Assembly: GCF_965641715.1 (NCBI RefSeq)
Contig: NZ_OZ282453.1
Reading direction: 5' to 3' (one strand)
Length of the DNA: 64,000 nucleotides
DNA from: Escherichia coli
Lineage (GTDB): Bacteria > Pseudomonadota > Gammaproteobacteria > Enterobacterales > Enterobacteriaceae
Shown: piece by piece, positions 3,081 through 52,839 of the stretch
Layout: every line of letters begins with the position of its first letter
How positions within the stretch are numbered: position 1 is the stretch's first letter
The notes under the pieces: model-generated
Told to the model about the DNA's origin: nothing
What the model saw: the letters and a program-made list of their open reading frames with translations, nothing else
Database searches by the model: none
Translations under genes and position numbers: made by a program

Positions 3081-4376
3081 CTAAGCGTTTCGCTGCCAGA
3101 CAAAACTTATGCCATTCTCACCTTCAGCCACACCTTCTTGCGTCACAAATACCCCTGCCGCCGCAATCAGCGTTTCGCCATAAAACAGCAGTGGCGTGGT
3201 GTCACGTAGCCACGGCGGCACGCCCAGCTCTTGCCAGATTTTCTTTAGCTTACGTCCGCCGTTACGCCCGACAATATGCAGCAATCCTGGCGCTTTGAAA
3301 CGCACGCTGACCGCTTCGTCTGCACGCGGAGGGCGAATAGCACCTCCCGCATTAAGCTGTACACTTCCCAGCCCCGCCGGTAATTCCAGCGGTTGAAGCC
3401 ACGTCTGCCACGGCACAATGTTTTCGCTTTGCCCGGTGACGGATTTAATCCACCACAGTTGCGACTGATAGCGTCGGATTTCAAACGCGCCCAAACGTAA
3501 ACAGGGGGAGGCATCTTCCCGCGCCAGCGCCACTTCCTGCCAGATCCTCACCAACGCGTCGCGGGAAGGCATCGGTGCATTCTGCCCTGCCAGCCAGCGG
3601 CGGATAATCGCCGCGCGGCGGGCATCACTCATCGCCAGCATTGGTACAATCTGCAGCGTCCCCTGCGGCGATTGACAGTGTGCTAAATCATCTGCCAGCA
3701 GTTCATCCAGCAGGCTCTCTTGTTCAGCACAAAGTGCGGCGCTGCGGGCCGTTGTTTCGGCAAAATGCGGCCAACGCTGCTGCAATAACGGCACTACGCG
3801 CAGGCGCAGAAAGTTACGATCGTATGAGTCGTCCTGATTACTTTCGTCTTCAATCCAGCGTAAACCATGCGCCAATGCCCACTGCGCCAGTTCCCCCCGC
3901 GTGCGGGCAAGCAACGGGCGGATAAGCCGTGTTCCGGCAAACTCCGAAACTTCCGCCATAGCCGAAAGCCCGGCAGGGCCGCTACCGCGTTTTAGCGCCA
4001 GCAGAAAAGTTTCACATTGATCGTCGAGATGTTGCGCGGTGACCAGCACTTCACCGGGCAACAAGGTGCGGGCAAATGCCTGATAACGCGCCTGCCGCGC
4101 CTGGGCCTCAATCCCCAGCCCCTCTTGCGCAAGTTGTACGCGTTCGACCACCAGCGGCACCTGCCACTGTTGGCAGACGTTTTCGCAATGCGTAACCCAG
4201 GCATCGGCATTGGCACTTAAACCGTGATGCACATGAATAGCGCGCAGAGCGACACCCGGATTTTCCGTCCGCCACTGCACCAACTGATGCAGCAGAACGG
4301 TGGAGTCAAGCCCGCCGCTAAAGGCCACCAGAATCTGGCGTGAGGTGAGAAGTTGTCTATTGAGCGTGAGTGTCAT
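3081..4376 (-). CDS. tilS: tRNA(Ile)-lysidine synthetase TilS (MesJ)
   Basis: 431 aa ORF with PP-loop motif SGGLDS near N-terminus. Confidence 0.95.
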
Positions 4377-47606: not shown

Positions 47607-50141
47607 TTAATTACTACCAAACATATCCTTAATCCAACCGGCTACACCGTCGCTATCTTTCTGCTCTTGCTGAGCAGGTTGCTGTTGCGGCTGTTGCTGC
47701 GGCTGTGAAGACTGATCAAACGGGTTGCCTGACGGCTGCTGCTGCATCTCACTCTGCTGGCACAGCGATTGCGGATCGCTGGTCCAGACCGGCAAGACAC
47801 GCATGCCACCGCTGCAAACAAAGTTGCCGTCGTAGTCCACGCCCATATCTGCAATATCTTCTGGCGGAACAAGATTCAGCGGCGTTGGCGTCTGGTTAGC
47901 CAGATAACGCTGATAAATCGACATTGCCCCGCTGGCACCATACAGTTTGGTCGGCTGGTTGTTATCACGGCCTACCCAGGTGATGGTCACCGTGCTGCCG
48001 TCAATGCCCGCAAACCAGGTATCTACGTTATTGTTGGTAGTCCCTGTTTTCCCTGCCAGATGCAGGTTCGGGTATTTCGCCCCAAGCTGACGACCCGTAC
48101 CACGTTGTACCACCTGCTGCATGGTCCATAGTGTCAGATACGCCGCCTGCGCCGGAACAGCGCGTTCCGCCTGCGGGAAGCTCTGATACAGCACTTTGCC
48201 ATCTTCCGCGATTACCGAACGCAGCGCAGAAAGCGGTGCACGGTTACCGCCGCTGGCGATGGTCTGGAATGCCTGCGCCACTTCGATTGGCGTTAAGTTC
48301 AACGCCCCCAGCAGCATCGCCGGAACCGGATGCAGCTGATCTTTCGGCACGCCCAGTTTAATCCAGGTATCCGTAACCGCAGGCAGCCCCAGCGCCATCC
48401 CCAGATTTACCGTCGGCACGTTCATCGAACGGGTCAACGCATCCACCAGCATCACTCTGCCGCTTTCGCTATAACGACGGTCATCGTTCTGCGGTGACCA
48501 GACCTGGCCATTCGGCTGACGTAGCGCGATTGGCGCATCCGCAATCCACGTATTCAGACGATAGATTTTCGGCTGGCTTAAGGCCGTCAGATAAGTCGCT
48601 GGTTTTGCAAGGGAACCAATCGAACGACGCGCCTGCATCGCACGGTTGTAGCCCGCAAACTGCGGCTCAGAACCTCCGACCATCGCACGAACTTCACCAC
48701 TAAAGCGGTCGACGACCACAATCGCGGTTTCCAGATCGCTCAGCTTACGCTGTTTCTTAAGTGCCGGAATGCCTTCCACGGCGGCTTTTTCTGCCGCGTC
48801 CTGGGCCACCGAGTCAAAGGTAGTGAAGATCTTCACGCCGGAGAGATCTTTTACCTTATCGCCTAATTTAGCCTGAAGCTCCTGACGCACCAGTTGCATA
48901 AAGGCTGGCTGAGGAGAGATCACCCCACCGCGCGGCTGAACACCCAGCGGACGCGCACTCAACATGTCATAGAGTTCTTGATCAATAATCTGTTGCTGTT
49001 GCAGCAGACGCAGTACCAGATTACGTCGCTCCAGCGCCAGTTTCGGGTTACGCCACGGGTTGTAGATGGACGCTCCTTTCACCATACCGACTAACAGCGC
49101 CTGTTGATCGAGGCTCAATTCTTCTACCGGGCGACCAAAGTAATACAAGCTCGCCAGCGGGAAGCCGCGGATTTCGTTGTCGCCGCTCTGACCGAGATAC
49201 ACCTCGTTCATATACAGCTCAAGAATACGGTCTTTGCTGTAACGCGCGTCCATGATCAGCGCCATGTAAGCTTCGTTCGCTTTACGCCAGTAAGAGCGCT
49301 CGCTGGAGAGGAACAGGTTTTTCACCAGCTGTTGCGTCAGCGTACTCGCCCCCTGCACCGTGCGTCCGGCTGTCAGGTTTGCCAGCACCGCACGTCCGAT
49401 GGAGTAGAGACTGATTCCATCATGCTCGTAGAAATGGCGGTCTTCTGTCGCCAGCAAAGTATCCACCAGCAAATCCGGGAAACCACTGCGCGGCACAAAC
49501 AAACGCTGCTCACCGTTTGGTGAGGAGATCATGGTGATCAGACGCGGATCAAGACGGAAGAAACCGAACTGACGGTTGTTCTCCATATTGACGATCGTCG
49601 CCAAATGATCGCCATCAAAGGTCAGACGCGCGCGCACCTGTCCTTCTTTACTGTCCGGGAAATCAAACGGACGGCGAATCATCTCAATGCTGTTGGCCTG
49701 CACGGTAAATTCGCCAGGACGGGTCATTTTTGACACCTGACGATACTGGGTTGCCTCCAGCAGCTTCACCATTTCGTTCTTGCTGATGGTCATGTCTGGC
49801 TCAAGGTTGACCATTCGACCATAAACTGCCGCAGGCAGTTGCCAGACCTTGCCATCAATACGGCTACGAATTTTTTGATCGAGATAAACGCCGTAAATGG
49901 CGATCAGCACGGCAAAAACGATAGCCAGTTTTAACAGCAGCCATAGCCAGCCGCGTTTGCCACGAGGCTTACGCCCTTTGCCTTTGCCCTTACCTTTGCG
50001 CGGCATCGGTTCTTCATCCTCATAGTCATCATAATCGTCGTAATCATCGTCATCTTCGTAACGACGACGGCTTACCTTTTGTTTGACCGGACGCGTCGGT
50101 TTCCCTTTGCGTCCAATTGGCTCGCGGTCATTCCCGGCCAT
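47607..50141 (-). CDS. mrcB: Penicillin-binding protein 1B (bifunctional glycosyltransferase/transpeptidase)
   Basis: 844 aa from [15 protein letters not shown]...; acidic [15 protein letters not shown] and (KG)n N-terminal tract, TM helix, SxxK transpeptidase domain. Confidence 0.96.
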
Positions 50142-50235
50142 GCTTTTTCTCCGCAATATTCAGGCGCAAAAGCCCGATTTTCTGTTCTTCTGTTGCAAGA
50201 CAGAAGAAGATATCTCTCAAAATTTGAGCTCGATC

Positions 50236-50330
50236 GGTCCCCTCTCCCTTAAGGGAGAGGGTTAGGGTGAGGGTGAACGTGCGCGCTGATGCCCTCACCC
50301 CGGCCCTCTCCCACAGGGAGAGGGAGAAAA
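50236..50330. repeat. Box C-type compound palindromic intergenic repeat
   Basis: ccctctccc ttaa gggagaggg; gggtgagggtgaa ... gccctcaccc; ccctctccc aca gggagaggg: three nested inverted repeats in 95 bp between the hrpB stop and mrcB start. Confidence 0.7.
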
Positions 50331-50336
50331 CCAACC

Positions 50337-52766
50337 TTACGAATACTTTTTCGTCCGTCGCGTCGGTGCCGTGTTTGCCGGGTCGTCCGGCCAGACGTGT
50401 TTGGGATAACGCCCTTTCATCTCCTTTTGCACCTCACGATACGCCCCTTTCCAGAAGGCCCCCAAATCACGCGTGATTTGCAGCGGCCTTTGGGCAGGGG
50501 AAAGCAACTCCAGCACCAGCGGCACGCGCCCCTGGGCGATCGTCGGATTGGTGGCCTCACCAAACATCTCCTGCATTCTCACCGCCAGCGCGGGCGGGTT
50601 ATCTTCATGATAACGAATGGCGATCCGGCTTCCCGTCGGCACAGTGTAATGCGCAGGCAATTCACTATCCAGACGTTGCTGCATTCCCCAATCAAGTAAT
50701 CCGCGTAGTGCCTGATAAATGTCGAGTGATTTCAGGCCGCGTAGTGAATGTACACCGGCCATATGTGGCAGCAGCCACGTTTCCAGCGTCGCCAACAAAC
50801 TTTCATCATCAACCGCTGGCCAGTCATATTCTGGCAACCACTTTCCGGCGCATAACAAACGCAAGCGTAGCTGTTCCGCTTCCGCCGTCCAGTTGAGCAC
50901 GCTTAAACCTTTATCACGGATGCCGTTAAGCATCGCCTGATGCAACTCGTCTTCTGACGGTTTCGCCAACGGCTGCACTTTCACCGTCAACTGACCGATT
51001 TGCAGCCGACGCCAGGCTTTCAGCGTACCTTGCGCGTCATCCCATTCCACGGTGTCAGATTGCTGCACCAGCTGCGGACAGCGTCGCACTAATTCATCAA
51101 TATCGACCGGTAGCGCCAGTAAAATCCGCGCATCCGGCGAGGCGCTGCCCTGCAATAATAACGGTGCGATCAACCATTCGTGGCGGCTTAGCGCGTCGTC
51201 GGCATCGAGCATCGCTCCCATGCCGTTTGCCAGTTGATAGCGTCCATCTTGCCCACGGCGGCGAGCAATGCGATCGGCAAACGCCCCGGCAAGTAGCGGC
51301 GCGATAAGCGAACTGTCTGCCTCACCGCCGCGTACGTTTAAGCGTTTTAACAGTTGCTGACTACGTTGCTGCCAGGCTGGTTGATTGCGCGAAAACGCCA
51401 CGCCCAGGTCACTATTGCCCATCCGTGGCGGCTCTTCGAGAATGGCGGCAATTTTTGCCGCGGTAGCAGCTTCGTCGTCGCTCTTTGCGCTAACCAGCAT
51501 TGCCGCTAAACGCGGATCGTTACCCAGCGCTGCCATTTTTTGCCCCTGCGCACTAAGCCGTTCACCGTCCAGCGCCCCCAGCATCTTTAACAGGCGTTTC
51601 GCGGCCAGTAAATTCACTGCTGGCGGTTGATCCAGCCAGCTCATCTGCGCCGGATCGCTGCATCCCCATTGCAGTAATTCCATCAACAAACCGGAAAGAT
51701 CGCTTTGTAATATTTCCGGTTCACTTTGCGCCGCGGCGCGTTCTGCTTGTTCCTTGGCGATTAAATGCAGGCAGATACCCGGCTCCAGACGCCCGGCGCG
51801 CCCGGCACGCTGCGTCATCGACGCCTGACTGATTCGCTGAGTAATCAACCGCGTAAGCCCTGTTCGCGGATCAAAACGCGCCACCCTTTCCTGGGCACAA
51901 TCCACCACCAGACGAATACCTTCGATGGTTAAACTGGTTTCAGCAATATTGGTCGCCAGCACCACTTTGCGCATCCCTTGCGGTGCCGGGAGGATCGCTT
52001 TTCGCTGATCGTTCAGCGACAACGCGCCATACAGCGGGCAGAGCAACACATCACTGCCGATGCGCGAAGCCAGTTGTTCCTGCACACGCTGAATTTCTCC
52101 GACGCCAGGTAAAAATAACAGTAATGATCCACTTTCCTGACGCAGCATTTCGGCGGTGGCAACCGCGACGGCTTCGTCAAAACGCTGATGCGCGGGCAGC
52201 GGTAAATAACGGCGTTCAACCGGAAACGAGCGCCCTTCTGAGATGACGACGGGCGCTTCTGGCAGCATTTGCTGCAAGCGGTCGTTATCCAGCGTAGCCG
52301 ACATAATCAGCAGTTTAAGGTCATCACGCAGACCTTGTTGCACATCGAGTAACAGCGCCAACGCCAAATCCGCCTGCAAGCTGCGCTCATGAAATTCATC
52401 AAGGATCACCAGTCCAACACCGCTCAGTTCCGGGTCACGCTGGATCATCCGCGTCAGCACGCCTTCGGTAACCACTTCCAGGCGGGTATTCGGCCCGACG
52501 CAGTTTTGCGCACGCATCCGGTAGCCAACGGTATCGCCTGGCTTTTCGTTAAGCAGCTCCGCCAGCCGTTGCGCGACGTTACGCGCCGCCAGACGCCGTG
52601 GCTCCAGCAGGATAATTTTCCCGTTAATGCCGGGATGCGCCAGCAGTTGCAGCGGCAGCCAGGTTGATTTCCCGGCCCCGGTCGGCGCACTTAATAATAC
52701 CTGCGGCGCACAATCGAGAGCGGTAAGTAATTCAGGTAAGACGGCAGCAACGGGCAACGACGACAC
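50337..52766 (-). CDS. hrpB: ATP-dependent RNA helicase HrpB (DEAH-box)
   Basis: ORF 50337..52811; probable GTG start giving ~809 aa; Walker A APTGAGKST and DEFH motif. Confidence 0.92.
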   Translation of the reverse strand: MSSLPVAAVLPELLTALDCAPQVLLSAPTGAGKSTWLPLQLLAHPGINGKIILLEPRRLAARNVAQRLAELLNEKPGDTVGYRMRAQNCVGPNTRLEVVTEGVLTRMIQRDPELSGVGLVILDEFHERSLQADLALALLLDVQQGLRDDLKLLIMSATLDNDRLQQMLPEAPVVISEGRSFPVERRYLPLPAHQRFDEAVAVATAEMLRQESGSLLLFLPGVGEIQRVQEQLASRIGSDVLLCPLYGALSLNDQRKAILPAPQGMRKVVLATNIAETSLTIEGIRLVVDCAQERVARFDPRTGLTRLITQRISQASMTQRAGRAGRLEPGICLHLIAKEQAERAAAQSEPEILQSDLSGLLMELLQWGCSDPAQMSWLDQPPAVNLLAAKRLLKMLGALDGERLSAQGQKMAALGNDPRLAAMLVSAKSDDEAATAAKIAAILEEPPRMGNSDLGVAFSRNQPAWQQRSQQLLKRLNVRGGEADSSLIAPLLAGAFADRIARRRGQDGRYQLANGMGAMLDADDALSRHEWLIAPLLLQGSASPDARILLALPVDIDELVRRCPQLVQQSDTVEWDDAQGTLKAWRRLQIGQLTVKVQPLAKPSEDELHQAMLNGIRDKGLSVLNWTAEAEQLRLRLLCAGKWLPEYDWPAVDDESLLATLETWLLPHMAGVHSLRGLKSLDIYQALRGLLDWGMQQRLDSELPAHYTVPTGSRIAIRYHEDNPPALAVRMQEMFGEATNPTIAQGRVPLVLELLSPAQRPLQITRDLGAFWKGAYREVQKEMKGRYPKHVWPDDPANTAPTRRTKKYS

Positions 52767-52839
52767 AAAACGCTCCAGAGGGTTAACATTCTTCGCGCCA
52801 CATTGTAGCATCGCGGTAATTCATAACCGAGTGCCTCAC

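Follow-up and report, generated by a model that had tools for sequence, protein, structure and literature searches.

Between hrpB and mrcB lies a GC-rich palindrome that is a genuine copy of the known Escherichia coli dispersed repeat BoxC/PIT/TMECO, already catalogued at this exact site. In the 64,000-nucleotide stretch of E. coli DNA analyzed here (the window), it takes the form of one type A and one type B unit in inverted orientation, most likely a selfish or neutral repeat that, once transcribed, forms a hairpin impeding exonucleases at the hrpB 3′ end. This reading is based on the identity of the element, its copy number, three alleles at the site, the predicted fold, and a mapped RNA 3′ end. 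What is added to the published description is a set of allele frequencies, a cross-genus hot spot, definitions of the A and B flanks, the coincidence with Term-seq 3′ ends, and a reassessment of an annotated small ORF. The locus is mainly a clean negative, being a catalogued repeat at a catalogued site; its full, hairpin-only, and empty alleles (55, 11, and 34% of E. coli genomes, respectively) form a convenient natural system for following BoxC effects on mRNA 3′ ends and the decay of quasi-palindromes.

Both neighboring genes are on the − strand (hrpB at 50337..52811, with its stop codon at 50337–50339, and mrcB with its ATG at 50140–50142), so the order is hrpB stop, element, mrcB, and the element is intergenic, with the hrpB stop on one side and the mrcB start on the other. 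The quasi-palindrome itself spans 85 nt (50240–50324), far beyond chance expectation. On the + strand, the first arm pair consists of CCCTCTCCC (50240–50248) and GGGAGAGGG (50253–50261) separated by TTAA, the second of GGGTGAGGG (50265–50273) and CCCTCACCC (50292–50300), and the third of CCCTCTCCC (50304–50312) and GGGAGAGGG (50316–50324) separated by ACA. The linker TTA follows the first GGGAGAGGG (50262–50264), and CGG lies between CCCTCACCC and the second CCCTCTCCC. The same arms were recovered by a repeat finder and by direct sequence inspection, and the three nested inverted repeats are present exactly as the initial annotation had described them. The 9-mer GGGWGAGGG occurs seven times in the 64-kb window, six of these within the element; shuffled sequences gave an expectation of 0.57, and none of 100 shuffles reached seven. 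Prediction of the RNA fold, which the initial annotation had proposed, gave one long interrupted hairpin in the hrpB sense (−75.2 kcal/mol, z = −7.6), with none of 200 shuffles equally stable. The RNA of the opposite strand is predicted to fold at −66.7 kcal/mol (z = −6.0) and the single-stranded DNA of the element at −31.9 kcal/mol (z = −5.0).

For identification of the repeat, the description of Holder et al. 2015 (PMC4666352) was used, in which BoxC was equated with the PIT elements of Hoyne and Maher, renamed TMECO, and given the consensus 5′-CCCTCNCCC N3-6 GGGNGAGGG N3 GGGNGAGGG-3′. A regular expression of this consensus matched the window element once on each strand, at 50240–50273 (+) and 50324–50292 (−). 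The + strand match lies in a type A unit, CCCTCTCCC-TTAA-GGGAGAGGG-TTA-GGGTGAGGG-T (50240..50274), and the − strand match in a type B unit, CCCTCTCCC-TGT-GGGAGAGGG-CCG-GGGTGAGGG-C (50291..50324). According to the published rule for paired sites, a unit of type A (TTA second loop) is joined by one of type B (CCG second loop) in inverted orientation (Holder et al. 2015); the window pair is inverted as this rule has it, with TTA at 50262–50264 and CCG at 50303–50301 on the − strand. Table 1 of the same study lists 23 TMECO units at 18 sites in MG1655, this locus contributing no. 1 (type B, 164547–164580) and no. 2 (type A, 164631–164597). Alignment of the window to NC_000913.3 164300–164900 confirmed orthology with these two units (MG1655 164547–164631): the locus, the three-block consensus, and the inverted A+B pairing are the same, the type B unit matches no. 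1 exactly, and the type A unit equals no. 2 except for one base of loop 1 (TTAA here, TTGA in MG1655). A further difference in the flank (GAGCTC in the window strain, GTGCTC in MG1655) likewise touches nothing essential. The label of a Box C-like dispersed repeat in the initial annotation was therefore apt, as both halves fit the BoxC/PIT/TMECO consensus and the site is that of the published TMECO 1+2.

The Box C site near fabI is TMECO no. 9 (Holder et al. 2015; Kaplan et al. 2016). In MG1655, the hrpB-mrcB element carries no RefSeq annotation, and no Rfam family was found over it when 49000–51500 of the window was searched at a permissive threshold; sub-threshold microRNA look-alikes in that interval were rejected as products of the long hairpin. 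The fabI site is reportedly the original Box C site, attributed to Bergler 1992, and the BoxC/PIT literature is also said to include work by Bachellier (1990s) and by Hoyne et al. 2000. BoxC resembles REP/BIME elements, which are likewise short, GC-rich, palindromic intergenic repeats often found as inverted pairs, but it belongs to another sequence family and has a third G block. The REP consensus (GCCGGATG...CATCCGGC type) was absent from window 50157–50336. REP RNA hairpins stabilize upstream mRNA against 3′ exonucleases. We know of no RAYT-type transposase, and of no IHF or gyrase binding, for BoxC.

To define the anatomy of the family, 13 MG1655 sites were fetched and all units were aligned in register. 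The copies form two subfamilies, A and B, each with its own conserved flanks: type A copies have GCnCnnnnCGGTC before and GAACAGGCCnGCAC after the unit, and all type B copies have TTTTCT or TTTTCC before and CATCAGCGCGCAC or a related tail after it. In the window, the corresponding type A 5′ flank is GAGCTCGATCGGTC (50226..50239, + strand), and the type B 5′ flank is GGTTGGTTTTCT (50325..50336, − strand), which directly follows the hrpB stop. Because the flanks are conserved within the family, the inserted block (about 50226–50336) is wider than the palindrome, and the placement at 50236–50330 in the initial annotation is essentially right. Single type B copies at ilvC-ppiC and xynR-argF end in CATCAGCGCGCAC or CACCAACGCGCAG, as in the window spacer, and the type A tail begins GAAC. 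Since copies of both types carry these tails, the 18-nt central spacer of the window element, TGAACGTGCGCGCTGATG (50274..50291), can be recognized as the two 3′ tails abutting one another. Three other paired sites in MG1655 (fepB, ygfF-gcvP, and alx) have a longer conserved central spacer and an upstream flank in common, from which it follows that the A+B composite is itself a repeated unit.

Copy number was determined by blastn, with matches found in 5335 of 5426 complete E. coli genomes at a median of 11 places per genome and a maximum of 26. Uniqueness in the genome, which the initial annotation had set against a dispersed repeat, is thereby excluded. Chromosomes accounted for 60149 of the places and plasmids for 43. 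The element is nearly absent from the phage collection, where five weak or odd matches were of no significance. Among 72,556 plasmid records, 345 had a match; on most of these, which are KPC-type plasmids, it is a lone 36-nt type A unit flanked by ISApu1 and ISApu2. In the IncP/IncU KPC-2 plasmid pKPC2_045096 (NZ_CP028566.1; extract 2496–2538), for example, the unit between ISApu1 and ISApu2 reads CCCTCTCCC-TTT-GGGAGAGGG-TTA-GGGTGAGGG. Approximately 288 records from Klebsiella, Enterobacter, Citrobacter, and Aeromonas had a best match of 90–95% identity, and every one inspected was this 36-nt unit, the presence of which on KPC plasmids qualifies the published claim that the motif is absent from plasmids. 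On the MG1655 chromosome, one type A unit (3908495–3908530) was noted in the pstB-pstA spacer of the pstSCAB-phoU operon, where a stable hairpin could influence the differential stability of mRNA segments of the operon.

The hrpB-mrcB site was then compared across strains by running a 501-nt query against the 5426 complete E. coli genomes, which fell into three length classes, and aligning representatives of each. Empty and deletion alleles were counted by junction-specific queries, used instead of the 4353 genomes covering at least 80% of a 116-nt query, a count that is inflated by other paired loci. The full pair of the window and MG1655 is present in ∼2950 genomes (∼55%), a figure derived from the 3535 that cover at least 80% of the 501-nt query minus the deletion allele. 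In the deletion allele (583 of 5426, 11%), exactly 64 nt (50240..50303) between the direct CCCTCTCCC repeats at 50240 and 50304 are lost, and the simple hairpin CCCTCTCCC-ACA-GGGAGAGGG is left. The empty allele (1865 of 5426, 34%) has GCTTTGGTCTTC in place of the block, lacks the type B 5′ flank, and ends hrpB with TGA instead of TAA. The element is dispensable and unstable. The deletion would be the product expected from hairpin-bridged replication slippage between the direct CCCTCTCCC repeats; the same “palindrome effect” was described by Holder et al. 2015 (PMC4666352), who also found TMECO loci to be more variable between strains than control sites were.

Two other derivations of the alleles were considered. 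That the empty allele is a remnant of deletion seems less likely, the resemblance of GACCAAAGC to the type A flank GACCGATCGAGC being too weak and the empty form of E. albertii and E. whittamii favoring an ancestral empty site; a template-switch origin by inverted duplication of a flank was set aside, as the resemblance is better explained by the family-specific A and B flanks. In E. coli E69 (extract 3686–3882), the composite was found in the opposite order, with the A unit adjoining hrpB and the B unit adjoining the mrcB leader. A second Escherichia genome (extract 3430–3569) also has the opposite-order composite, and this arrangement has a hairpin-only deletion derivative of its own. The opposite-order composite thus points to more than one event of filling or inversion at the site.

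The instability raises the possibility that structure in the DNA is itself the role of the element, an intrastrand (H-DNA-like) triplex or a cruciform stalling replication and promoting rearrangement. This would be compatible with an exonuclease block in RNA, and we consider it possible, if on the doubtful side. Each unit contains the C, G, and G blocks needed for a purine-motif triplex, and CD and NMR show that TMECO oligonucleotides fold into stable triplexes as single strands, but with the complementary strand they form a duplex, and DMS footprinting in vivo was negative (Holder et al. 2015). The greater variation of TMECO loci among strains agrees with such a role, and the predicted products are seen at this locus, namely the 64-nt deletion leaving a hairpin, the reversed composite of E. 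coli E69, and other deletion derivatives. The deletion, however, needs no triplex, being accounted for by hairpin-bridged slippage between direct repeats; the deletion allele could derive from one or a few events, and instability is more simply taken as a side effect than as a function.

To follow the same site across enterobacteria, genome contigs were searched with the HrpB C terminus, and hrpB-mrcB spacers were extracted from 80 species. All spacers contain a block of ∼84 nt directly upstream of the mrcB ATG and a variable part between this block and the hrpB stop. The empty form found in one-third of E. coli recurs in E. albertii, E. whittamii, and Escherichia sp. MOD1-EC7003, and because these sister Escherichia share it, the empty site is probably ancestral in the genus. 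Two further Escherichia genomes carry hairpin-only deletion derivatives. In Enterobacter, Leclercia, Lelliottia, Phytobacter, and others, some of them with arrays, there is a type B unit inverted relative to that of the window, and REP-like elements with the REP consensus occupy the same site in Citrobacter and Salmonella. The spacer content is of BoxC type in at least 26 of 74 species and REP-like in at least 15 of 74; in five species, only 4 nt lie between the hrpB stop and the conserved block. The site is a permissive dumping ground for palindromic repeats rather than one that needs a repeat.

The type B unit of Enterobacter, Leclercia, Lelliottia, Phytobacter, and their relatives frequently has a further module after it, composed of ACTAAAG, a variable 9–10-bp hairpin, and GCTGTTTATTTT. 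This module resembles an intrinsic terminator, its stem varying by species with pairing kept, and in Phytobacter diazotrophicus the BoxC-B unit and the module are present together in three tandem copies.

Occupation of one intergenic spot in differing orientations across genera could also be a trace of mobility, the units being non-autonomous elements (MITE-like or REP/RAYT-like) moved in trans by a hairpin-recognizing enzyme and the pair arising from two insertions or from one of a composite. The dispersed, near-identical copies with family-specific flanks, the recurrence of the same A+B composite with a conserved central spacer at three other MG1655 sites, and the type A unit adjoining ISApu1 and ISApu2 on KPC plasmids all fit such an origin. 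Comparison of filled and empty sites, however, revealed ∼13 nt replaced and no target-site duplication of the kind that marks a MITE, no associated transposase is known or was seen, and the element is nearly absent from phages and rare on plasmids. Movement by an enzyme acting in trans is, in our judgment, unlikely.

For evidence at the RNA level, Term-seq data from MG1655 were consulted (Adams et al. 2021, supplementary files 1 and 3), in which an orphan RNA 3′ end is recorded at 164636(+), 94 nt upstream of mrcB. This end lies 5 nt past the last base of the pair (...CCCTCAAGGGAGAGGGGACCG^ATCGAGCACA, i.e. GGGAGAGGG-GACCG^, where the caret marks the end) and corresponds by alignment to position 50235 on the − strand of the window. 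It is weak, with a score of 987 and one appearance in the three-condition table, and no Rho-termination region near 164636 was present in the searched coordinate ranges of the Rho table of that study. When the same tables were searched with BoxC strings, ends were found 4 nt after the hairpin at 3781065(+), the primary 3′ end of lldD (GGGAGAGGGGACC^), at 4231270(−) (GGGGCGAGGGGACT^), at 847200(−) (GGGGAGAGGATTA^), and at 3959467(−) (GGGAGAGGGTCGG^), and 11 nt after the stem at 632098(+). Some of the ends at other BoxC copies score 28,000–42,000. The suggestion in the initial annotation that the element stabilizes the hrpB 3′ end thus gains experimental support from the MG1655 end 5 nt after the stem.

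An RNA 3′ end at the base of a very stable GC-rich hairpin that directly follows the hrpB stop is also what an intrinsic terminator or insulator separating hrpB from mrcB would give, and RegulonDB, as quoted elsewhere, lists the two genes as separate single-gene operons. The hairpin is followed by GACCGAUCGAGCUC, however, and not by a U tract, the hrpB-sense sequence continuing GACCGATCGAGCTCAAATTTTG after the stem. Scanning of 49900–50700 for promoters and terminators found neither in the hrpB-mrcB spacer. In earlier work, as summarized in the literature, PIT elements blocked DNA polymerase in vitro and showed no promoter, terminator, or other activity in vivo. Moreover, the element is missing, with no substitute at the site, from 34% of E. 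coli genomes and from the sister species. A terminator is therefore quite improbable, and the insulating role put forward in the initial annotation is not upheld, given no U tract, no terminator activity shown by PIT elements, and one-third of E. coli without the element.

A block to exonucleases, by contrast with termination, needs no U tract, and it is because an RNA end follows the hairpin while such a tract is missing that we favor it. Stable stem-loops without U tracts shield Rho-dependent 3′ ends from PNPase and RNase II (Dar and Sorek 2018). The BoxC pair is similarly stable, is similarly devoid of a U tract, and has its steady-state 3′ end a few nucleotides downstream; those stem-loops belong to Rho-dependent, exonuclease-trimmed transcripts, whereas hrpB is likened to them by its hairpin and 3′-end position only. 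It is these stem-loops, together with the similar 3′ ends at other BoxC copies, that make a REP-like exonuclease block the best supported reading. Because the 164636 end is weak and no Rho region was found nearby, that the end arises by trimming rather than by termination is something we infer.

The element occupies a permissive interval bounded by the hrpB stop codon and the conserved mrcB leader. In the favored reading, it is not a locus-specific regulator, being missing from one-third of E. coli genomes and from sister Escherichia. In double-stranded form, the DNA is an unstable quasi-palindrome, from which 64 nt would be lost when the two direct CCCTCTCCC repeats slip past the hairpin that separates them. 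Upon transcription of hrpB, the pair would fold into a hairpin of ∼30 bp, and read-through transcripts would come to end 5 nt beyond it. Termination would take place further downstream, and 3′-to-5′ exonucleases would then be stopped by the hairpin, as with REP elements and the stem-loops of Rho-dependent transcripts. Any effect on expression of hrpB or mrcB is probably small, and since earlier work found no activity for PIT elements, any effect at the RNA level may be marginal. A hairpin-only model leaves unexplained the strong conservation of the third G block in single units.

The G-rich blocks have elsewhere been taken to form a G-quadruplex, which would switch with hairpin or duplex forms to regulate neighboring genes; the hrpB-mrcB site is listed as putative motifs HPG1-6 and HPG2-5 (no. 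6 of HPG1 and no. 5 of HPG2), with CD evidence for quadruplex and hairpin oligonucleotides (Kaplan et al. 2016). We consider this very unlikely, as NMR of the full unit favors a triplex (Holder et al. 2015), the hairpin is strongly favored because each G block has a complementary C block nearby, and the element is dispensable.

The 84-nt block directly upstream of the mrcB ATG (window 50137–50220, − strand) is conserved in 59 distinct enterobacterial sequences and opens with an invariant TTGAGAGA. Two hairpins were noted in it, the first with arms TTCTTCTGT/ACAGAAGAA at 50185–50193/50200–50208 and the second at 50160–50177. For hairpin 1, compensatory changes were seen at 6 of 10 pairs, with 96% of cells paired and none of 500 shuffles as good. 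No Rfam match was obtained for the block. It resembles a structured leader or a regulatory site of mrcB, and to our knowledge it has not been described.

The two ORFs of about 68 aa that the initial annotation had placed over the repeat do exist, with lengths of 68 aa (50128..50334, − strand) and 69 aa (50267..50476, + strand). No Pfam family was found for the three ORFs crossing the element, and the 69-aa ORF was absent from the protein collection. The 68-aa ORF starts at a TTG, crosses first the repeat pair and then the mrcB leader, and extends into mrcB. It is open in MG1655 as well (164537–164743, with one substitution), and many GenBank records call it a “hypothetical protein,” the entries falling into clusters of 230 and 12 members. 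A 68-aa “protein D8B36_18480” between hrpB and mrcB has been published (Biofilm 2024, PMC10869245), and its clone in pUC19 abolished Congo-red staining (white colonies) and lowered csgA expression 18-fold. The window ORF is most likely this published one, to which it is matched by length and location only.

Comparative tests speak against coding. The first two-thirds of the 68-aa ORF correspond to the repeat pair, which is absent from 1865 genomes and frameshifted in 583, so that the frame, far from being conserved, is broken or missing in 45% of E. coli genomes. Of 59 species compared over the last third, which lies on the mrcB leader, 11 have stop codons in this frame and 11 have indels that break it. 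The ORF is unannotated in the RefSeq records examined and has no entry in a Ribo-RET small-ORF supplement. On these comparisons, it is very probably non-coding, an artefact of the repeat and the conserved leader, in agreement with the initial annotation, which had taken both ORFs for artefacts. A real 68-aa protein regulating curli expression, for which the open frame in the window and MG1655, the many GenBank calls, and the plasmid phenotype might be cited, is highly improbable: its TTG start lies 2 nt past the hrpB stop, without a spaced Shine-Dalgarno sequence and within the −75 kcal/mol hairpin, its N-terminal two-thirds are merely the repeat pair, its leader frame breaks while the RNA hairpin covaries, it has neither Pfam family nor RefSeq annotation in the records examined nor Ribo-RET supplement entry, and the plasmid phenotype is equally attributable to RNA or DNA.

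As the 68-aa ORF is non-coding by these tests, the curli phenotype may instead stem from RNA of the hairpin and leader or from the palindromic DNA, and the D8B36_18480 phenotype calls for an RNA/DNA control. A broader proposal can be framed, in which BoxC hairpins are a general, unrecognized class of elements that define or stabilize RNA 3′ ends, functionally analogous to REP (Term-seq ends 4–5 nt, and in one case 11 nt, past the hairpin at six or more copies), and in which D8B36_18480 silences curli through overexpressed BoxC hairpin and mrcB-leader RNA, or through palindromic DNA on a high-copy plasmid, and not through a protein. Taken as a whole, this proposal is speculative and more apt to fail than to hold. 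Many “partial” versions of the 68-aa ORF were also noted at the ends of ∼59–60-kb contigs in draft E. coli and Shigella assemblies, which suggests that short-read assemblies often break at the BoxC pair.
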